Source: an uncultured Candidatus Peribacteria bacterium
Lineage (GTDB): Bacteria > Patescibacteriota > Gracilibacteria > Absconditabacterales > Absconditicoccaceae
Assembly: GCA_964542965.1 (NCBI GenBank)
Contig: CAZIVH010000002.1
Span: 487 to 64,486 of the forward strand
Direction: 5' to 3'
DNA: 64,000 nucleotides
Shown: positions 7,502-63,858 of the stretch, piece after piece
Layout: each line of letters opens with the position of its first letter
Numbering within the stretch: position 1 is the first letter of the stretch
Position numbers and translations under genes: made by a program
The notes under the pieces: generated by a model
The model's database searches: none
Told to the model about the DNA's origin: nothing
What the model saw: the letters and a program-made list of their open reading frames with translations, nothing else

Positions 7502-7531
7502 AAAAAAATCAGGTTCACACCTGATTTTTTT
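7502..7531. terminator. Bidirectional terminator between nrdR and the convergent hydrolase gene
   Basis: aaaaaaATCAGGTtcacACCTGATttttttt: perfect 7-bp stem with an A-run and a T-run. Confidence 0.6.
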
Positions 7532-20396: not shown

Positions 20397-20422
20397 TTTC
20401 TCATTTTCAATTTCTCATTTCT

Positions 20423-20456
20423 AAAAAAAACCTGGCTATGATCGCCGGGTTTTTTT
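20423..20456. terminator. Bidirectional terminator between surface protein B and nusB
   Basis: aaaaaaaaCCTGGCtatgatcGCCGGGttttttt. Confidence 0.55.
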
Positions 20457-21010: not shown

Positions 21011-21047
21011 GATGGGAAAATAAGGAACTAAAGATCTACTTCATTAT

Positions 21048-21115
21048 GATTGAAATATGCAAGGATTGAAATATTGAAAGATTATTTTTCCATTTCTCCA
21101 TTTTCAATTCTCCAC
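21048..21115. repeat. Heptad/octad-arm inverted repeat (ATTGAAA flavour), no core
   Basis: gattgaaatatgcaaggattgaaatattgaaagatt / tttttccatttctccattttcaattctccac. Fills most of the nusB-rpmF spacer. Confidence 0.55.
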
Positions 21116-21118
21116 ATA

Positions 21119-21349
21119 TTACGCGTCGACTACCTTGTCCTTTGTTTTGCTCTTGATGGTCAAAACCTGTTTTCCTTTGTAATATCCGCATACTGGACAT
21201 ACTCTGTGAGAAAGCTTTTTAGCTCCACAGTTCTTGCACACAGAAATCTTGTAGGTATCTACCATCCTCTGAATATTTAACCCTTCCCATGTTGAATGCC
21301 TCTGGCGTCCTTTCGCTTGGGAAATTTTCTTTTTTGGTCCGATTGTCAT
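21119..21349 (-). CDS. rpmF: 50S ribosomal protein L32
   Basis: 76-aa ORF with CKNCGAKKLSHRVCPVCGYYKG zinc ribbon typical of L32. Confidence 0.85.
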   Translation of the reverse strand: MTIGPKKKISQAKGRQRHSTWEGLNIQRMVDTYKISVCKNCGAKKLSHRVCPVCGYYKGKQVLTIKSKTKDKVVDA

Positions 21350-21353
21350 AACT

Positions 21354-21437
21354 AACGATGAATTGATAAAATGATGAGGCGATGAAACGACCTACCGATA
21401 AAGCATTTAAGCATTTATTCGTTTAGTCGTTTAATCT
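21354..21437. repeat. Heptad-arm inverted repeat (GATGAAACGAC / GTCGTTTAATC flavour)
   Basis: aacgatgaattgataaaatgatgaggcgatgaaacgac ... atttattcgtttagtcgtttaatc. Fills the rpmF-rpmA spacer. Confidence 0.5.
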
Positions 21438-21438
21438 A

Positions 21439-21711
21439 TTATTTTACATCAACTACTGTCTTGAGGTATTTTCTTCCGTCAAATCTTCCTACTTTTTTCT
21501 GTTTGAAGGTAACGGTTCCATCTACTTTTGCATGAACAGAGAAATCACTACCCAAATAGGTGTTTTTTCCACATTCATATTTAGATCCTTTCTGTCTGAT
21601 GATAATATTGCCTGCGACAGCTTTCTGTCCTCCAAAAACCTTGACTCAACGATACTTTGGCTTCGAATCCCTGAGGTTTTTTGCCGATCAACCGGCTTTT
21701 TTGTGTGCCAT
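21439..21711 (-). CDS. rpmA: 50S ribosomal protein L27
   Basis: MAHKKAG-[TGA 21688-21690]-SAKNLRDSKPKYR-[TGA]-VKVFGGQKAVAGNIIIRQKGSKYECGKN...; both TGA lie on conserved L27 glycines. Absent from the standard-code track. Confidence 0.85.
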
Positions 21712-21792
21712 TGTAAATTATAACTAACGAGTAAAATACGTAACATAATTCAGCGGGGTTGTATATATGGATTTCCCTACTGTTTTCAAGCT

Positions 21793-25611
<3,819 letters not shown>

Positions 25612-25647
25612 ACGCCGATGTTTAGTAAGAAAATAAACGACTTAACT

Positions 25648-25725
25648 ATTGGGACATGGGACTAGGTATTTGGAATGTGGAAATTTTTCTATTCCTTTGC
25701 CCCTTGTCCCTTGTTCCTTGTTCCT
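25648..25725. repeat. Heptad-arm inverted repeat (GGGACAT / CCTTGTC flavour) in the rpoB-rpoC spacer
   Basis: attgggacatgggactaggtatttggaatgtggaaa ... ctattcctttgccccttgtcccttgttccttgttcc. Contains TAGGTATTTG, which resembles the 5' end of the conserved core. Confidence 0.5.
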
Positions 25726-25730
25726 ATGTA

Positions 25731-29522
<3,792 letters not shown>

Positions 29523-29624
29523 ACGATTATCTGTGATAAGAAAATAAACAATGAATATTAATCTATGCGTTGGTATTCAAACATTTTCTTCATCCAAAAA
29601 CAAAAAAATTCAAAAACCGTAGGG

Positions 29625-29780
29625 TTACGATCTTTGAACAGTCAATTGTTTTCTGCCTTTTCTTCTCCTTCTGCTCAGCAACGCCCTTCATCCGGCTGTT
29701 TGCATTCTTTCTCTGAATCCATGTTTGGTTATTCTCTTCCTTCGAGAATATTTTCTCACCCTTCTTAATTTACTAGCCAT
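29625..29780 (-). CDS. rpmH: 50S ribosomal protein L34
   Basis: MASKLRRVRKYSRRKRITKHGFRERMQTAG-[TGA 29688-29690]-RALLSRRRRKGRKQLTVQRS. Too short for, and split in, the standard-code track. Confidence 0.85.
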
Positions 29781-29820
29781 CGTAGTATACTGTTAAATGG
29801 TAAATTCCTTTTTGGTATCA

Positions 29821-29877
29821 GGTAGAAGGTGAAAGGTAGAAGGCCTCGTCCCTTATCCCTGTTTATTTATCCCTTAT
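29821..29877. repeat. Heptad arms (GGTAGAA/GGTGAAA vs CCCTTAT) between rpmH and the S6/S18 gene
   Basis: ggtagaaggtgaaaggtagaagg cctcgt cccttatccctgtttatttatcccttatt. Confidence 0.4.
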
Positions 29878-29879
29878 TA

Positions 29880-30446
29880 TTATTTCTTATATTCCACGAA
29901 TCCGAGTTCTCTCGCTCTCAACACAACAGTCTTAAGCTTTTTCTGTGTGGATACTGGATTATTTGTATATGCCCTTGGTTTGATATCACCAAACCTTGTT
30001 ATATATTTTTTGAGCATCGCTACTGACTTTCGGTTAAGATATTTTTCATTTTTCTTGTCAGCGAAAAAAGCAACCTTTTGTCAAAGTTTCTTAGGATCCC
30101 GTGAGTCTATGATGGTTTTGAGTTCATCATTTACCTTTGCAAACTTCAAAAACTCTTCGTTCTTATCCATCTTGAAGATGTAATATCTCTTGATTGCCTT
30201 ATTATACAACAAATTCTTTTTGATTACATCCAAATCTTCGGCTTCTGCCTGAATATAATATGAATACACATATGCCTTGTCATTTCAAGACTTATTGCTC
30301 AAATTATACATTAGTTGCTGGAGTCCCATATCGTCCTGATCGACGATAGTTTTCTTGATGAGCTTTTCAAATTCAGAAACCGTTTCTTTGCGGTTAGTCT
30401 CTGATAAAGACGCATCAACCAACAACACTACATCATACTTTTGCAT
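29880..30446 (-). CDS. rpsF/rpsR: Fused 30S ribosomal proteins S6 (N-terminal) and S18 (C-terminal), 188 aa
   Basis: Hand translation: MQKYDVVLLVDASLSETNRKETVSEFEKLIKK...GLQQLMYNLSNKS-G-NDKAYVYSYYIQAEAEDLDVIKKNLLYNKAIKRYYIFKMD (S6-like). Then ...DPKKL-[TGA 30081-30083]-QKVAFFADKKNEKYLNRKSVAMLKKYITRFGDIKPRAYTNNPVSTQKKLKTVVLRARELGFVEYKK (S18-like). One frame; no ATG is available for a separate S18. Confidence 0.7.
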
Positions 30447-30473
30447 GAGTTTACTTATGTAAGGTAGTAAAAA

Positions 30474-31274
30474 TTACGATCCGATAGCCATTCTAACAAA
30501 CGCAATGACTTTCATATCAGCTGGCAAGATTTCCTTTACTTTTTTAGCGCCATCCCTGATATATTCCTGTTCCAAAAGGACAAAATCAGCCAACGTCTTT
30601 TTGATTTTTCCATCGACAATCTGAGCAATCATAGCTTCAGGCTTTCCTGCAGCCTTGAGTTCGGCTCAAAACTCTTCTTTCATCCTTGCTATTTCATTTT
30701 CATCCACTTGTTCAAAAGACACATAGGTAGGATTCATAGCAGTCACTTGCAATGCCACTTCCTTGGCCGCTTCATCATTTCCTCATTCGAAGAAAATCAA
30801 TGTAGCTACCTTATTTCCTGGATGATTGTAGATATATGCTTTTTTACTTGTTACCAACACTCCTCCAATCTTCATATTCTCTCCTGTCTTGCCCATAAAT
30901 TCTTTCACTTCATTTTCTACCTCTTCAGCTATTGCAGGATCAAGATGTTCTAAAGCAGATATTTCTTTGTCTCCCTGCGCAATCTTATTGAGTACGGAAT
31001 CAAACAACGCTTGGAAATTTTCATTTTTAGCGACAAAGTCGGTTTCACACAAAAGCTTCAGTCCAACTGTTTTACCATTGAGCTCCGTTATCTTGACAAT
31101 ACCTTCTTTGGTCTCTCTTTCTGCTCTACTTCCTGCTTTCGCGATACCCTTTTTTCTAAGCACTTCCTGTGCCTTTTCCAAATCATCTCCTGCCTCAGCC
31201 AATGCTTCTTTACAATCTTTGAGGGGAGCAAAAGTGATATCTCTTAGTTGTTTCAATAATTCTATGTTTGACAT
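30474..31274 (-). CDS. tsf: Elongation factor Ts
   Basis: MSNIELLKQLRDITFAPLKDCKEALAEAGDDLEKAQEVLRKKG (UBA-like N-terminus). Track ORF 30783-31274 is extended through 2 TGA to TAA 30474; gaps checked. Confidence 0.85.
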
Positions 31275-31277
31275 GAG

Positions 31278-31303
31278 AATAATGATAAATGATAAATGAT
31301 ATA
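31278..31303. repeat. Tandem heptad AATGATA x3 between tsf and the upstream membrane-protein gene
   Basis: aataatgataaatgataaatgatata. Confidence 0.4.
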
Positions 31304-31307
31304 TTGA

Positions 31308-31769
31308 TTATGGATTTTTCTGTTGGGGAATCTGTTGTTTCTCAGATTCTTTTTCCTCCTTGATTTCGAAGAGCGTCATAATCCATCCTCATAGAGCATA
31401 GAATATCGCTAACTTATTTTCTTCGGCTATGTTGTATTTTCCGTCTCGAGCACGCTTGATAAATATTCCTAGGAATATCACCATGATAATCACAGCAAAG
31501 ATGGGGATATATTTTATCAATGGCAAGAGCATCATTACAGACGTCGCAACGATCAGAAGAAGGAAGACCGCTCGCCATCACAACGATTGTTTGAGATGAA
31601 AGGTTTCAAAATCATTCTTTTTCTGATTATTGAGTGCGACGACAATGATACCTATAAGAAGATACATCATCACTGCTCTCTTTTTCTCCGTACTACTAGG
31701 GATATACGCCTCTGTGGAAGCTTGAGCCGCCGTCTGAACGACCGCTTCTGGCATTTTTGTTTCTTCCAT
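31308..31769 (-). CDS. Small integral membrane protein (153 aa)
   Basis: Track ORF 31578-31769 extended through 2 TGA. Several hydrophobic spans: MMYLLIGIIVVAL, AVFLLLIVATSVMMLLPL, IFAVIIMVIFLGIF. Confidence 0.5.
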
Positions 31770-31820
31770 CTACATCAAAGAGAAGATAAATTGCTTTTTG
31801 GCAATTCTATGGTATGAAAA

Positions 31821-32483
31821 TTATTTGAACATACTATTTAAGACAAAATCAACGCTCTTATGACTTCCCATATTAGCGATAATTATGCTATCTTCAGCCC
31901 GTCGTCTAGAGAAATTCGTACCTGCGATAACGATATTTTGGATTCCAGGAGTCTTTTCTATCTCGTTAATGAAATTATCCATCATCTGTCCATCAAGCAC
32001 GATGATCAATTCTGGCTTTCTGGTTAGATTCTTTACTCCTTTATAAATCTTCAATACTCTAGCAAGTTTTCTCTTGTAGACTAACTGTTCTTTTTTCGTC
32101 AATGACAAATATGCTTCGCTATCAATGAAACGAGCCATACTATTCATAGACTCTATCCTCTTCTTGAGCGTCTCGAAATTCGTCAAGAATCCGGAAGGAA
32201 GTTTGTAGTTGAGGTAATTGACTCCGTATTTTTCACCGAGCGTTTCAAGTTCATCAGCATACATCTTTTTTTCGGAAACGATCAAAATCTCTTTTCCATC
32301 AGCTTTTGCTTGTTGGATTTTCTTTTTCGCGTTCTCGATCTGCTCTATGATGATTTCGGGATTGATCACTGCTATATTGTTTACTACCCCAGCCCGATAT
32401 TTGTTGGTCTTTGGGTGAGCTTCGCTTTTGAGCGTACCAATATGAGCTTGCGCCTCAATCACATCGTTTACAGATATACTCAT
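31821..32483 (-). CDS. rpsB: 30S ribosomal protein S2
   Basis: Intact 220-aa ORF with ...AQAHIGTLKSEAHPKTNKY... and the ...IIVLDGQMMDNFINEIEKTPGIQNIVIAGTN... pattern. No TGA. Confidence 0.85.
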   Translation of the reverse strand: MSISVNDVIEAQAHIGTLKSEAHPKTNKYRAGVVNNIAVINPEIIIEQIENAKKKIQQAKADGKEILIVSEKKMYADELETLGEKYGVNYLNYKLPSGFLTNFETLKKRIESMNSMARFIDSEAYLSLTKKEQLVYKRKLARVLKIYKGVKNLTRKPELIIVLDGQMMDNFINEIEKTPGIQNIVIAGTNFSRRRAEDSIIIANMGSHKSVDFVLNSMFK

Positions 32484-32508
32484 AATGTTTACGATTTGAT
32501 AAAATAAA

Positions 32509-32595
32509 GTGAAATTTGAAATTTACAATTTGAAATTTGAAAACGTAAATACGCGATTTCAAAATTTTAAATTTCGCCTTTCAAATTCAAAATTC
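32509..32595. repeat. Heptad-arm inverted repeat (TTTGAAA flavour) filling the rplL-rpsB spacer
   Basis: gtgaaatttgaaatttacaatttgaaatttgaaaacg taaatacg cgatttcaaaattttaaatttcgcctttcaaattcaaaattc. Confidence 0.55.
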
Positions 32596-32985
32596 TTACT
32601 TAAGGGTGATAGTAGCTCCTTCAGCCTCCAATTTAGCCTTAATACCTTCAGCCTCTTCGTACTTAACTTTTTCCTTGATGACAGTAGGTGCCTTTTCTAC
32701 AAGGTCTTTAGCTTCCTTAAGTCCGAGTCCAAGAACTTCCTTAACAACCTTGATAACTCCGATCTTTTGCTGTCCGATATCTGTCAATTCGATATTGACG
32801 GAATCAGCATTTCCACCAGCAGCTCCTGCATCTGCAGCTCCACCAGCAGCTCCTGCAACTACCATAGCAGCTGCGCTTACGCCAAATTCTTCTTCTAAAG
32901 CTTTAACCAATTGGTTTAGTTCGACTGCACCCATCCCTTTGACGAGATCCATTATCTTCTGTGCATTTCCTGATAATTCTGCCAT
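32596..32985 (-). CDS. rplL: 50S ribosomal protein L7/L12
   Basis: 129 aa: ...[15 protein letters not shown]..., Ala/Gly hinge, then ...[27 protein letters not shown]... Confidence 0.9.
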
Positions 32986-33024
32986 TGTTGTATAAAATAA
33001 AGTAATAAAATACTAGATATGTTT

Positions 33025-33140
33025 GAACGATTAAACGATGAAACGCTTAAACGCTTAAACGACTAATAAGATTGGAATATTGAAAGATGTAAAAATTGAA
33101 CAATTAATTTTTCCATTCTCCATATCTCCATTCTTCCATG
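33025..33140. repeat. Two heptad/octad arrays (TTAAACGC flavour, then ATTGAAAGATG / TCCATTCTCC inverted pair) in the rplJ-rplL spacer
   Basis: gaacgattaaacgatgaaacgcttaaacgcttaaacgac; gattggaatattgaaagatgtaaaaattgaacaatt / tttttccattctccatatctccattcttccatgg. Confidence 0.55.
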
Positions 33141-33141
33141 G

Positions 33142-33765
33142 TTATTCAGCTGGTGTTTCTACCGGTGCTGCTTCTTCAGCCTTTGGCTCTTCTTTTGTTT
33201 CTTCTTTCACTTCTTCTTTTGGCTCCTCTACTTTTTCTTCCTTAACCTCAGCTACTTCACCATCTTTCTTCGCGATTTCACTAAGTGCAACAGCGAATGA
33301 TTGCAATGGATAGTTGAAGAGATAACAAAGCTTTGAGATCAATTCTTCTTTTGAAGGAACATTAGCAAGTTCATTAACATACTCTCCATCTTGCCGTTTC
33401 TTCTCGAACCGTCCTCCAATAAAAGATAATGCTGGTTTCTTATTCTCTTTCTTGAATTCCTTCAGATATTTGTTGATCACTTTGAGCGGAGCATATTCAT
33501 CGTTTTGCGCATACAACGCAAACACAGGCCCTTCCAAGGCATCGACACCGACTTCTTCAAGTCCTGCGTCTTTGAGTGCTCTCAGGAAGATTCTCTTCTT
33601 GATGATATTCATCTTTCCTTCAGCATTACTCAGCTCTATCCTCATCTTGTTCGCAAGCGTAACAGGAATAGCCGATTGTTTTACAATCACTGCATTCTTT
33701 GCATTTTCAAGATCAGTTACATATCATTTCAATAACTGTGTCTTCTTGTCTTTGGTGATAGCCAT
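33142..33765 (-). CDS. rplJ: 50S ribosomal protein L10 with acidic/Lys-rich C-terminal tail
   Basis: MAITKDKKTQLLK-[TGA]-YVTDLENAKNAVIVKQSAIPV... is in frame with track ORF 33142-33690. Confidence 0.8.
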
Positions 33766-33958
33766 TGTCCTACTATTATAAAGTATAAATTTTCTTGATG
33801 AAAACAAAAAGACCCATTTTCAAGGTCCATACAAAAAAGAATGTTTGTATCTGAACCTCGGTAGGAATTGGTATTTTATGCGTTTTAGCAACCTACTGTC
33901 TTTGGTGTTTCAGTGAGTGTTATAGAAAAATTGGGAGAGAATGCAAGAGAAAATTATC
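33766..33958 (-). promoter_or_regulatory. rplJ upstream region: putative promoter plus structured leader with a terminator-like hairpin
   Basis: On the minus strand: TTGCAT, 16 nt, TATAAC. Then hairpins AGTAGG...CCTAC and ATACAAAcattcttTTTGTAT, and GACCttgaaaatGGTC followed by TTTTTGTTTT. Could be an L10-leader-type attenuator, but unverified. Confidence 0.25.
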
Positions 33959-34756
33959 TTATTTCTTTCATATTTCAAGAAAATATCATATAAGTGCGCT
34001 CAATTCGTTATATAGATCAAGACATTGTCATTTGATCTTTATGTCTTGAATTTGATCTATTACTCTCTTTACCTGCAATGAATAGCTAAGAATAAACCAT
34101 TTTTGCTCTTCAAATCATGCATTGAATTTTTCCCAGATTGCCGGTCCATTTTCTTCCAATCATTTTATCATACCCCTCAAATTATGTATCCTATCAGATA
34201 AGGACAAAATCAAGGACTTACCTGATACCGTATCTAAATGCTTGATGTATGCAACCTTCCTCTCTTTTCGTGGTAATGATTTATCTTGCTCTGTAACATC
34301 ATCCACTAGCCCCAGAATATCTCCAGTATATTTTGATTCCAATAACATTCTTCAGCCTTCAACATCTTCTATCACATCATGCAACAATCAAGCTATTATT
34401 AACTTTTTATCATTTGTCACACGACTTATTATTTTTGCTACGGCGATTGGATGATCCGTATATGGAATATTTCCTATTTTTCTGTATTGATCTTTGTGAA
34501 ACTCCATTATATCCTTTAGTGCATTTTGAATATCTCCATCCTCTGAAACCATTTCAAAAGTCTTTTCCTCTAATTCTAGGTTTTTCTGAAAACTATCATA
34601 TGTATCTTTTATCTTCTCTGTACGATGTTTTTCGAATGCCTTTATTTGTTCTTCTGTAGGATCTCCATCATATCCTTGATCAAAATTATTCGCCATCGTC
34701 TCAAGTGTCTTTTTATCTTCTTTATTAGCGTCATATGTAGTCATGTCGTTTTTCAT
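33959..34756 (-). CDS. HD-domain protein, RelA/SpoT-type hydrolase only (small-alarmone-hydrolase/Mesh1-like)
   Basis: ...FHKDQYRKIGNIPYTDHPIAVAKIISRVTNDKKLIIA-G-LLHDVIEDVEG-G-RML...LVDDVTEQDKSLPRKERKVAYIKHLDTVSGKSLILSLSDRIHNLRGM, the classical HD_4 motifs. Every codon down to TAA 33959 was read by hand. ATG 34756 preferred over the track's TTG 34774. Confidence 0.75.
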
Positions 34757-62031: not shown

Positions 62032-63858
62032 ATGCATATTATGTTACAATTCGATTCTCTCAAAACATTGGACGCATCCATCACACTCCTGCAAAAAAGA
62101 ATCAAAGATCCGCATACGCTTTTCCTCGTTGGAGGATGCGTCAGAGATCTCCTTTTGGGAATCGAAAAAAAGCCTACTGACATCGACTTCACCATGGCCG
62201 GTGATCCAAAAAAGTTAGATAAACTCATCGACAAAAAAGGCATGTCCTACTTCATGACCGAAAAATTCGGCACGATGACACTCATCAAAAAAATTGAAAA
62301 ATTGAAAAATTGAAAGATGGAAACATTGAATCCTGAAGCAATTAAGTATGAATTGACGCCACTGAGGACAGAAGGTAAATATGATGATTTCAGACACCCG
62401 GGAGAGATTGAACGAAGCAATGATCTCTTACTAGATTCCCATAGAAGAGACTTCACGATCAACTGCATCTATTATGCGAATACGAAACGGACACAAGAGC
62501 ATGAAAAACATATCGCTAAAAAATACATCCACCATTATTCTGACGACGACACGTTCGTCCAGAGATTGAACGACCAGGGATATATTCTCATCAAGGATTT
62601 GAATCTCTTGATACTCCAAGACCATAAACATATCTCCAAACTCTTCAAAGGGTGATGTTTCCATGACGATCATCTCGTAGAGATGTTGAAGTCCGTAACG
62701 ATTTTTTCTACAAAAAAGAATTGAAAATTAAAAATTGAAAATTGAAAATTACTACGTATCGTAGTTGATCCGCACAAAGGGATACAAGATAGTATCTACA
62801 AAAGATTGAGAGCAGTCGGCGATCCGGACAAAAGATTCAATGAAGATGCGTTGAGAATTGTGAGAGCGATTAGGTTTGTGAATGTACTTAATGAAAAATT
62901 GAAAAATTGAAAGATGGGAAAATTGAAAGATGGGAAAAATAGTGATAAAGTAACGTTGTTTGATTTTGAGAAAGCGACATGGAATAGCGTCAAAAAGAAT
63001 CATGAACTCGTAAAAAACGTAGCGAAAGAGAGAATCAAGGAAGAGATCATGAAAGCGTTTACGGTAGGCAATCCGTTCGGTTTCATCGCCTTGCTTGACG
63101 AAGCAAAACTGCTCGAACATTTATTCCCTGCCTTATACGCGACCAAAAATATCGAGCAACCCATCAGATATCATCCGTTTGATGTGTATGTTCACACGCT
63201 CCTCTGCTTGTTTGAATTGCAGAAAATAAATAAAGATCCTCTTGTGAGATTAGCGATGCTCTATCACGATGTCGGCAAGGTGGATCAATTCGGCGCGTAC
63301 GCTGACGGACTGAGCAAAGAAGAGATCAGAGAGATTCTCGCTGGGCCGCTGAATCACAGAAGAAGCTCACCGGAATACGCGAAGAAAGATTTCAAATCGC
63401 TCGGATTCTCCAGCAAAGAGATTACGGAAATAGCTCGATATATCGCCCATCACCACACGCCGGAAGAAATGATTTTCGCCAAAGAGGAAAATAGAGAGAA
63501 AAAAGTGAGATCTTTCCTTAGCGAAGCGGGCTACGAAAGAGCTATGAATGTCTTGGATATTGCGATGGCTGATAGATTGGGACAATATAACCCACTACAG
63601 AATAGTTCTGACATTTCCGATGTAGATGAAATCAGGAAAATCCTAAAAAAACTTCAGAAGCAAGAAGGACAATTCACGATGAAAAACCTCGCTATCGACG
63701 GAGCATATATCATGAAAGAATTAAAACTCCCTGCATGACCGACTATCGGAAAATTACTAAAAAAGACCCTTGAGTGGGTCATGACGGATATCAAAGCAAG
63801 GAATGAGAAGAAGCAGATATTAGGATTTTTGAAGATACAAATGAGACACCTGAAATAA
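62032..63858 (+). CDS. cca: CCA-adding tRNA nucleotidyltransferase with HD domain (608 aa) carrying three in-frame heptad-repeat insertions
   Basis: ...LFLVGGCVRDLLLG...PTDIDF..., ...RRDFTINCIYY..., ...LRAVGDPDKRFNEDALRIVRAIRF..., ...YHPFDVYVHTL...LYHDVGK... Track ORFs 62032-62313, 62317-62655 and 62914-63738 share frame 1. Gaps read by hand: TGA only. TAA 63856. Confidence 0.8.
62287..62330 (+). repeat. ATTGAAA-flavour repeat inside cca, site 1 (encodes KIEKLKN-G-KMETL)
   Basis: aaaaaaattgaaaaattgaaaaattgaaagatggaaacattgaa; shares ATTGAAAGATG with the spacers at 21071-21083 and 33080-33090. Confidence 0.55.
62712..62752 (+). repeat. ATTGAAA-flavour repeat inside cca, site 2 (encodes KKN-G-KLKIEN-G-KL)
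   Basis: aaaaaagaattgaaaattaaaaattgaaaattgaaaattac. Confidence 0.5.
62890..62940 (+). repeat. ATTGAAA-flavour repeat inside cca, site 3 (encodes NEKLKN-G-KMGKLKDGKN)
   Basis: aatgaaaaattgaaaaattgaaagatgggaaaattgaaagatgggaaaaat. Confidence 0.55.

Follow-up and report, generated by a model that had tools for sequence, protein, structure and literature searches.

Heptamer simple sequence repeats (SSRs), convergent pairs of heptamer arrays and intervening sequences (IVSs) that carry an open reading frame (ORF) are each already known. All three resemble the inserts analysed here, which are tandem arrays of 7–8-nucleotide (nt) units in the spacers of a ribosomal-protein and RNA polymerase gene block (positions 21011–33141) of an uncultured Candidatus Peribacteria bacterium. 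The window, that is, the whole 64,000-nt stretch, corresponds to contig C2:487–64486 of a genome of 1.10 Mb (67 contigs, 38% GC), labelled G000. A stem flanks those IVSs of 23S rRNA that carry an ORF of the PF05635/TIGR02436 family, and RNase III removes them without the cut ends being rejoined (Warrier et al. 2016, PMC4990558). Direct repeats of the heptamer TAACTGA occur in marine Beggiatoaceae, cyanobacteria and some Bacteroidetes (MacGregor 2015, PMC4679880). In Xanthomonas, 70–75 sites consist of two convergent GGGAATC arrays capable of forming a stem-loop, and Nostoc has GGGGA(T/C)T (Rehm et al. 2015, PMC4692102). For the period of 7–8 nt itself, the sole proposal of an origin that we found is a polymerase footprint, put forward in Mrazek 2007 as cited in PMC4679880. 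In the literature searched, we found no paper linking heptamer SSRs, convergent heptamer pairs and ORF-bearing IVSs, and no description of these in code-25 candidate-phyla bacteria. To our knowledge, no origin or role is accepted for the heptamer repeats (cyanobacterial short tandemly repeated repetitive (STRR) sequences, Xanthomonas GGGAATC, Beggiatoa TAACTGA), and no function is known for the PF05635/TIGR02436 ‘IVS proteins’, the structure of which is solved; both puzzles are decades old.

Similar to the rRNA IVSs of Leptospira and Coxiella burnetii, the block inserts sit in a transcribed essential unit and would in part be stem-bordered (a fold better than shuffles in four of seven spacers), their full form carries the same small four-helix-bundle ORF family (S23p/PF05635/TIGR02436; Xanthomonas XCC0516, PDB 2gsc), they are sporadic among close relatives and the genome encodes RNase III. 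As opposed to rRNA IVSs, all seven lie between protein genes, the copies in the block are without a PF05635/TIGR02436 ORF, their stems are tandem 7–8-nt arrays and their excision is predicted. The 23S gene of this genome (contig C5:48573–50550) has no extra insert relative to the Rfam model, up to model position 2001. The likeness to the TAACTGA repeats lies in tandem heptamers placed just 5′ of start codons that lack a ribosome-binding site, within ribosomal-protein operons and patchily among relatives. The TAACTGA repeats, however, have one fixed unit and almost no inverted pairs, whereas here there are many units (none of them TAACTGA), both 7-mers and 8-mers, about a quarter of the arrays paired and a link to a PF05635 cassette. 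As with Xanthomonas GGGAATC, Nostoc GGGGA(T/C)T and the STRR sequences, intergenic heptamer SSRs are strongly over-represented and other unit lengths are not, but Xanthomonas and Nostoc each have a single G-rich, quadruplex-prone unit per genome, in contrast to the AT-rich and diverse units found here, and no gene-cassette link has been reported for them (PMC4692102). For comparison with miniature inverted-repeat transposable elements and repetitive extragenic palindromes, one insert family (family B, below) has dispersed copies, orthologous sites are filled in some species and empty in others, and no target-site duplication was seen at the two sites read.

Our preferred reading, to which we assign a probability of about 0.55, is that the block spacers hold gene-less, IVS-like hairpin inserts, remodelled by slippage and replacement and probably cut by RNase III. 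The design is a purine- or A-rich tandem 7–8-nt array, a short loop and a complementary pyrimidine- or T-rich array, and inserts lie between the stop codon of one gene and the conserved leader of the next, about 25–35 nt long and without a Shine–Dalgarno (SD) sequence. The arrays themselves, with their polarity, placement, turnover and tie to the cassettes, are observed, whereas transcription through the inserts, cleavage by RNase III and the way in which they spread are inferred. The parent design would have a PF05635/TIGR02436 gene, encoding a four-helix-bundle ‘23S rRNA intervening-sequence protein’, in place of the loop.

Periodic arrays in the block spacers

ORFs called with the standard code are fragmented in this genome. 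With TGA read as glycine, rpoC and rpoB each become one single frame, and the TGA codons coincide with conserved glycines, for example in CG of the zinc finger and in SGARGS; because of this the organism is taken to be a code-25 candidate-phyla bacterium of the Gracilibacteria/Absconditabacteria type. The block, in sense order and identified with Pfam, comprises rplJ, rplL, rpsB, a hypothetical gene (hyp), tsf, an S6–S18 fusion gene (S6S18), rpmH, rpoB, rpoC, rpmA, rpmF and nusB, all on the minus strand. Periodicity was assessed with Tandem Repeats Finder (TRF) and with a lag-match score compared with 2,000 dinucleotide shuffles, and folding by the minimum free energy (MFE) of the whole spacer against 200 shuffles, expressed as a z-score per strand. 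The inserts and their adjoining leaders are as follows (window coordinates; family B is a dispersed family described below).

rpmF to nusB, 21048–21115, minus strand: octamer-armed family B element, sense GGAGAATTGAAAATGGAGAAATGGAAAAAT, loop AAT, CTTTCAATATTTCAATCC
rpmA to rpmF, 21373–21433, minus strand: sense octamer array TAAACGAC TAAACGAA TAAATGCT TAAATGCT, then a short complementary GGTCGTTTCATCG
rpoC leader, 25612–25646, minus strand: conserved, SD-less, genus form TTAGTCATTTATTTTCTTACTAAG.ATATTAGT-ATG, downstream of the variable insert
rpoB to rpoC hairpin, 25647–25725, minus strand: sense 5′ arm AGGAACA AGGAACA AGGGACA AGGGGCA, 3′ arm ACATTCC..TAGTCCC ATGTCCC
S6S18 to rpmH, 29820–29881, minus strand: on the plus strand GGTAGAA ×3.4, then TTATCCC-type units, the arms poorly complementary
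hyp to tsf, 31281–31301, minus strand: solo array, sense TATCATT ×3, ending 6 nt ahead of the tsf start codon
rpsB leader, 32484–32508, minus strand: conserved, TTTATTTTATCAAATCGTAAACATT-ATG, next after the rplL–rpsB hairpin
rplL to rpsB hairpin, 32509–32595, minus strand: GAATTTT/GAAATTT-type heptamer arms
rplJ to rplL, part 1, 33026–33066, minus strand: solo octamer array, CGTTTAAG-type (sense) ×5, about 40 nt upstream of the rplL start
rplJ to rplL, part 2, 33075–33140, minus strand: family B hairpin straight after the rplJ stop codon, GGAAGAATGGAGATATGGAGAATGGAAAAATTAAT...CTTTCAATATTCC

The initial annotation had described periodic 7–8-nt arrays in seven spacers. TRF reports them in all seven, and six exceed the shuffles (P ≤ 0.0045). 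No shuffle out of 2,000 reaches the period-7 score of rpoB–rpoC (16), hyp–tsf (14) or rplL–rpsB (14), or the period-8 score of rpmA–rpmF (13) or of part 1 of rplJ–rplL (19). The rpmF–nusB arrays, at 21065–21083 and 21084–21103 in plus-strand coordinates, have a period of 8 by TRF, with P = 0.0045 for the best arm and 0/2,000 shuffles for both arms together. The seventh, S6S18–rpmH, is marginal: TRF reports AGGTAGA ×3.4, with scores of 34 and 44, and the shuffle test gives P = 0.21 for one arm and 0.047 for two. Three spacers for which no arrays had been claimed, rpoC–rpmA, tsf–S6S18 and rpsB–hyp, are not periodic (P 0.2–0.9). Rfam at the gathering score returns only tRNA-Lys and an L10 leader, with no match in the spacers.

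The accompanying claim, that the arrays form inverted pairs and long hairpins, held for part of the set. A fold superior to that of shuffles (z −2 to −3.2, 20–29 pairs) is seen in four of the seven: rpmA–rpmF (sense-strand MFE −18.0, z −3.2, about 20 pairs), rpoB–rpoC (z −2.0 sense and −2.6 antisense, about 21 pairs), rplL–rpsB on one strand (z −1.1 sense and −2.4 antisense, about 29 pairs) and part 2 of rplJ–rplL (sense-strand MFE −30.4, z −3.1, about 25 pairs). The whole-spacer folds of rpmF–nusB (z +0.5/+1.3) and S6S18–rpmH (z −0.2/+0.3) are no better than shuffles, and the solo hyp–tsf array does not fold.

The same unit flavours recur across the genome, as had been proposed, with small corrections to individual sites. 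The octamer ATTGAAAGATG is found at 33079, whereas 21071, where it had also been placed, has ATTGAAAGATT. AAACGAC is present at 21385 and 33057. GTGAAAA has two plus-strand sites, 53374 and 58119, and one minus-strand site, 3643. Some of the quoted positions are thus off by one or a few bases. On the plus strand ATTGAAAGATG also lies at window positions 62309, 62906 and 62922, and arrays occur within ORFs such as cca.

Genome-wide census of arrays

We censused 230 kb of intergenic DNA, delimited by our own code-25 ORF caller, the gene calls of which are approximate. It holds 119 period-7 and 44 period-8 arrays, against 0.8 and 1.4 in shuffles; periods 2–6 and 9–13 are at or near the shuffle level (at most 7 versus about 1). 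Recurring flavours are AATGAAT, AGTGAAT, ATTGAAAG (pairing with CCATNTCT), TAAACGAT, GGTAGAA, AATTACG and AAATTTA, and CGTTT-type arrays like that upstream of rplL stand immediately upstream of start codons at 15 or more further loci. The tetramer TGAA is found in 71 of 224 units (18.6 expected) and is not universal, and a unit motif shared by all arrays was accordingly rejected. We also rejected the provision of stop codons in all three frames as the purpose of the arrays, as AGGAACA, ATTGAAAG and TGATGCA contain neither TAA nor TAG. Units of this kind can be read as coding, and can fuse or extend ORF calls under code 25.

The arrays have a marked polarity. Adjacent arrays follow the order A-rich then T-rich 46 times and the reverse order twice. 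A strongly complementary partner lies within 110 nt for 48 of 224 intergenic arrays, on the right of A-rich arrays (18:0) and on the left of T-rich ones (26:4). A-rich arrays begin a median of 5 nt past a stop codon and T-rich arrays end a median of 11 nt ahead of a start codon; among arrays closest to a start codon, the sense strand is the T-rich one in 93 cases versus 37. There is no SD signal genome-wide (5% versus 4% in a control window). Genes as a whole have a T-rich, G-poor tract at −25 to −12 and a TTTA(N) motif that peaks near −22, and across the genus the leaders of 25–35 nt are nearly unchanged at the level of single bases, unlike the sequence upstream of them, which turns over.

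Arrays occur in 22–27% of co-directional, 24% of divergent and 8% of convergent spacers; by Fisher's test against the convergent class, p = 5e-5 (co-directional) and p = 0.001 (divergent). Convergent spacers are nevertheless structured in 82% of cases, with short, stable hairpins (17 pairs, −0.52 kcal per nt), whereas array hairpins have 28–42 pairs at −0.26 to −0.38 kcal per nt and tails that are not U-rich, with about 3 T in 8. The arrays are thus unlikely to be the terminators of this organism. Ordinary terminators with a GC stem and an A/T tract are found, as the initial annotation had it, at 7502, 20423 and 56719. A heptamer run, ATTTCTC ATTTTCA ATTTCTC ATTTCTA at 20405–20434 (plus strand), adjoins one of them (approximately 20432–20456) at the convergent junction between a giant surface-protein gene and nusB.

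Turnover at orthologous junctions

Among 30 genomes of the same genus (hereafter congeners), the gene order of the block is conserved, and the comparison bears out the expectation that a given junction would retain periodicity and pairing even as its units are exchanged. Between rpoB and rpoC, purine-rich and pyrimidine-rich heptamer arms can be recognized by eye in 10 of 10 species, with unrelated units (AGGAACA, GCTAAGT, TAGTGAA, GATGCAC, TGATGCA, ATGAGAC and AGGGAGC). The fold is better than shuffles (z < −2) in 8 of the 10. Period 7 or 8 is significant at P ≤ 0.05 in eight species, six of which also pass P ≤ 0.01, a level that no other period attains in 82 tests at congeneric junctions. 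The rpoC leader is common to nine of ten congeners, that of G011 being different, and the insert upstream of it is unrelated from species to species.

Between rplL and rpsB, congeners fall into three flavour groups, each followed by the conserved leader, and 7 of 13 fold with z < −2. For five species of the same flavour, RNAalifold detects compensatory change at three pairs and returns a covariation term that is positive, so that support from covariation is weak. The hyp–tsf spacer holds a full palindromic element in G010, G001 and G013 and the T-rich arm alone in G006. Between rplJ and rplL, the octamer array is also present in eight congeners, and the family B hairpin is confined to G000, G010 and G004; in G001 and G013 the stop codon leads directly to the octamer array.

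The closest pair, G000 and G008, the RplL proteins of which are 99% identical, illustrates the modes of change. The two differ by one heptamer unit in rpoB–rpoC, which agrees with an earlier suggestion that the spacers are prone to slippage. They have unrelated flavours in S6S18–rpmH, and the rpmA–rpmF array of G000 is absent from G008, which has a 31-nt spacer there; the rpmF–nusB element is kept. The comparison of congeners thus indicates that certain junctions keep the architecture, whereas the sequence there undergoes wholesale replacement and slippage alters its length.

PF05635 cassettes with arms of the same design

The genome has five PF05635 genes. Three are bracketed by inverted 7–8-mer arrays and the other two abut family A or family B elements (families described below). 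The two cassette proteins scanned are TIGR02436 members, and that of contig C24 matches the Xanthomonas S23p pentamer (PDB 2gsc). Each of the 30 congeners has 1–15 PF05635 copies. In 12 cassettes sampled from 12 congeners, all 12 have a purine-rich array upstream and its complement downstream; the flanks form a duplex with z < −2 in nine (a tenth is at exactly −2.0) and z < −3 in six. Cassettes in three other families are also bracketed. The flavours of congener cassettes are identical to those of gene-less block hairpins of other species: GATGCAT/TCTTGCATC is a flavour of rpoB–rpoC and CTTAGA/GTCTAAG one of rplL–rpsB. In G000 itself, the GGTAGAA of S6S18–rpmH is the arm flavour of the C24 cassette. 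As the design is the same, with a PF05635 gene as the loop, the block elements can be described as IVS-like cassettes that lack the ORF or are reduced to a single arm. Array density and the number of PF05635 copies are correlated across the class (Spearman 0.84 in 20 genomes, 0.73 in the 8 outside the genus), a value that is overstated because kin are not independent.

Two cassette sites, on contigs C24 and C26, could be followed through the genus; at both, inserts always lie between the stop codon and the conserved leader.

C24 site, G000: full cassette
C24 site, G010: full cassette, different arms
C24 site, G004: solo arm, 63-nt spacer
C24 site, G013: empty, 28-nt spacer
C24 site, G001: unrelated GC-rich hairpin element, 158 nt
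C26 site, G000 and G008: full cassette
C26 site, G010 and G001: same GC-rich hairpin element as at the C24 site in G001; 152 and 174 nt
C26 site, G013: plain 120-nt spacer

The GC-rich elements represent a second kind of spacer insert in congeners, 150–175 nt long, GC-richer and containing several CCTCCTTTG..AAGGAGG-type hairpins. They occupy stop-to-leader slots that in G000 hold PF05635 cassettes.

G001:C5:27116–27273: GC-richer insert
G010:C19:16677–16828: GC-richer insert
G001:C17:11955–12128: GC-richer insert

At contig C5:4972–5714 of G000, there is a tandem pair of PF05635 genes. The first has a 3′ heptamer arm (CCATCTAAATCAATCTAATCTATCTAAG) that extends into the gene's own C-terminal coding sequence, and a family A element follows the second.

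Dispersed families A and B

Two recurrent element families share the design of the block inserts. Family A is palindromic, with a core GGACTATTGTA..TACAATAGTCC and mirrored heptamer arrays; an nhmmer profile gives 125 strand-hits at E < 1e-3, corresponding to about 62 loci genome-wide, of which the window contains 8. Its arm design, polarity and stop-codon-to-leader position are those of the block inserts, and family-A-type arms fill the orthologous hyp–tsf and rpoB–rpoC spacers in other species. The initial annotation had suggested that the arrays might be decayed, coreless traces of the same element family. In that form the suggestion is not supported: the profile has no match in 21011–33141 even at E ≤ 10, the block spacers are also without the core palindrome and, judged by sequence, the block inserts of G000 are not members of core-bearing family A. 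Family B comprises the rpmF–nusB element and part of the rplJ–rplL spacer, and 11 further copies fit a strict pattern, most of them with a common loop close to AAAAAT(T)AAT. Relative to the genes, six copies are in sense and two in antisense orientation (7 versus 2 including the rplJ–rplL copy), numbers too small to decide on a preference. A CRISPR array at contig C32:1–4000 has the repeat ATCTACAATAGTAGAAATTAAATATATCTGTTAGAC, the reverse complement of which ends in a Cas12a-type handle, AATTTCTACTATTGTAGAT; the repeat and the family A core palindrome have a 9-mer in common, ACTATTGTA, which may be chance.

Proposed mechanism and competing explanations

The IVS-like reading follows from 23S IVSs that are stem-bordered, excised by RNase III and carry the same ORF family, together with the RNase III gene of this genome, which lies at contig C5:15189–15581. 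The inserts would be transcribed within the operon mRNA, and the paired ones would fold into long imperfect stems of 20–29 bp. By analogy with the rRNA IVSs, RNase III would probably cut these stems, which would make an insert harmless and could turn it into an intercistronic processing site; a role of the arrays as RNA-processing or insulator stems, raised by the initial annotation, is plausible. Replication slippage changes the number of units. Whole inserts are gained, lost or replaced, and orthologous spacers consequently have unrelated units. Where a T-rich arm lies beside a start codon, it may extend the U-rich upstream tract that all genes have.

Several observations weigh against this reading. 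Roughly three quarters of intergenic arrays lack a significant partner, and for two of the seven block spacers the fold is no better than in shuffles. No preference of folding for the sense or the antisense strand was found (p = 0.07 for all spacers, p = 0.75 for the structured ones), and selection at the RNA level is therefore not demonstrated. The start and stop polarity is weak in 11 congeneric pieces, for which gene calls are cruder (13 versus 8 and 9 versus 9), and the correlation with PF05635 copy number carries the non-independence noted above. Among the matches listed (150 of 221), no PF05635 gene lies in the block of any of 26 congeners, so that descent of the hairpins from cassettes is deduced from shared design and flavours and was not seen in the block itself. 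The means by which inserts would spread is not accounted for by a reverse transcriptase (none was found) or by target-site duplication (none at the two sites read), and transposases were not searched for. The retention of an insert between rpoB and rpoC in every species could mean a function for the host and not a tolerated parasite.

Such a host function is a live rival, and one that does not exclude IVS-like inserts: the T-rich arm would extend a U-rich standby tract and its partner would couple translation. In its full form, which we regard as a possibility well short of likely, the tandem U-rich units are binding or standby sites for S1 or for cold-shock proteins with an oligonucleotide-binding (OB) fold, masked by the complementary arm behind the stop codon of the previous gene for as long as that gene is untranslated. 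The missing SD signal, the T-rich tract and TTTA-type motif ahead of genes, the T-richness of start-proximal arrays, which end a median of 11 nt upstream, and the equal frequency of arrays in divergent and co-directional spacers, with few in convergent ones, all fit, as does the persistence of the T-rich arm alone at hyp–tsf and rplJ–rplL in several species. The genome also has a protein with at least three S1 domains and a cold-shock-domain gene, and a translational role has been proposed for TAACTGA heptamers, in a study noting that one CspB molecule binds one heptamer (MacGregor 2015, PMC4679880). But units at the same junction differ wholly between species, so there is no common recognition motif; what is truly conserved is the leader, downstream of the arrays; the majority of genes are without an array; the polarity is weakly replicated in congeners; and inverted pairs around an accessory gene are left unexplained. 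A further account, which we consider improbable, takes the arrays as plain SSRs, produced in place by polymerase slippage, made palindromic by template switching at quasi-palindromes, unrelated to PF05635 and without function. The one-unit difference between G000 and G008, the predominance of solo arrays, their presence in ORFs such as cca and the status of heptamers as the commonest long SSR class in many bacteria, for which the polymerase footprint has been invoked (Mrazek 2007, as cited in PMC4679880), would all agree with it. It does not predict dispersed families (11 strict family B copies, mostly with a common non-repeat loop, and about 62 family A loci), replacement instead of drift at one junction in the closest genomes, the strict 46:2 polarity, or an array density that tracks PF05635 copy number with every sampled cassette bracketed.

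Intrinsic terminators or attenuators that separate transcription units inside the block are the least probable of the explanations, and we rejected them on the distribution among spacer types and on hairpin energetics. In Escherichia coli the rplL–rpoB spacer contains an attenuator; here TTTATTTTATC directly follows the rplL–rpsB hairpin, and the A-rich 5′, T-rich 3′ polarity is that of bidirectional terminators. Convergent spacers, however, are mostly structured and rarely have arrays, their hairpins are shorter and more stable per nucleotide, array-hairpin tails are not T-rich, the T-run of rpoB–rpoC lies about 12 nt past the stem, and one would not expect a terminator at the rpoB–rpoC or the rplJ–rplL junction.

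Beyond the reading of the block spacers as gene-less, IVS-like inserts, we offer as speculation, and consider rather unlikely as a whole, that heptamer repeats and orphan IVS-protein genes are two halves of one transposase-less cassette. This cassette would live in the stop-to-start gaps of operons, ride on read-through transcription and be excised from mRNA by RNase III. The pentameric four-helix-bundle protein that it encodes would bind the 7–8-nt units and promote the copying or replacement of arms, and the gene-less hairpins at rpoB–rpoC and at ribosomal-protein junctions would be relics, partly co-opted for processing or coupling in an SD-less organism. The genus, with genomes of about 1 Mb, joins both puzzles at high density: a fifth to a quarter of non-convergent spacers have arrays, and there are up to 15 cassettes per genome. 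The series of full cassettes, solo arms and empty sites, together with inserts even between rpoB and rpoC, makes both puzzles testable, by asking whether RNase III acts on the stems, whether the units are bound by the protein and what generates the arms. There is a consequence for annotation too: the spacers of recoded candidate-phyla genomes have features of their own, and arrays free of in-frame TAA and TAG can distort ORF calls.

Other features of the block

Ribosomal proteins S6 and S18 are encoded by one fused ORF of 188 amino acids (window 29880–30446, minus strand), with S6 at residues 3–92 and S18 at residues 138–183; the fusion gene is syntenic in 10 of the 10 congeners in which the region was read. 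The L10 leader (RF00557, 49.8 bits) lies at window 33796–33923 on the minus strand, upstream of rplJ. Its position implies that the longest ORF, 33142–34020, overcalls rplJ, the likely start of which is a GTG at 33690.

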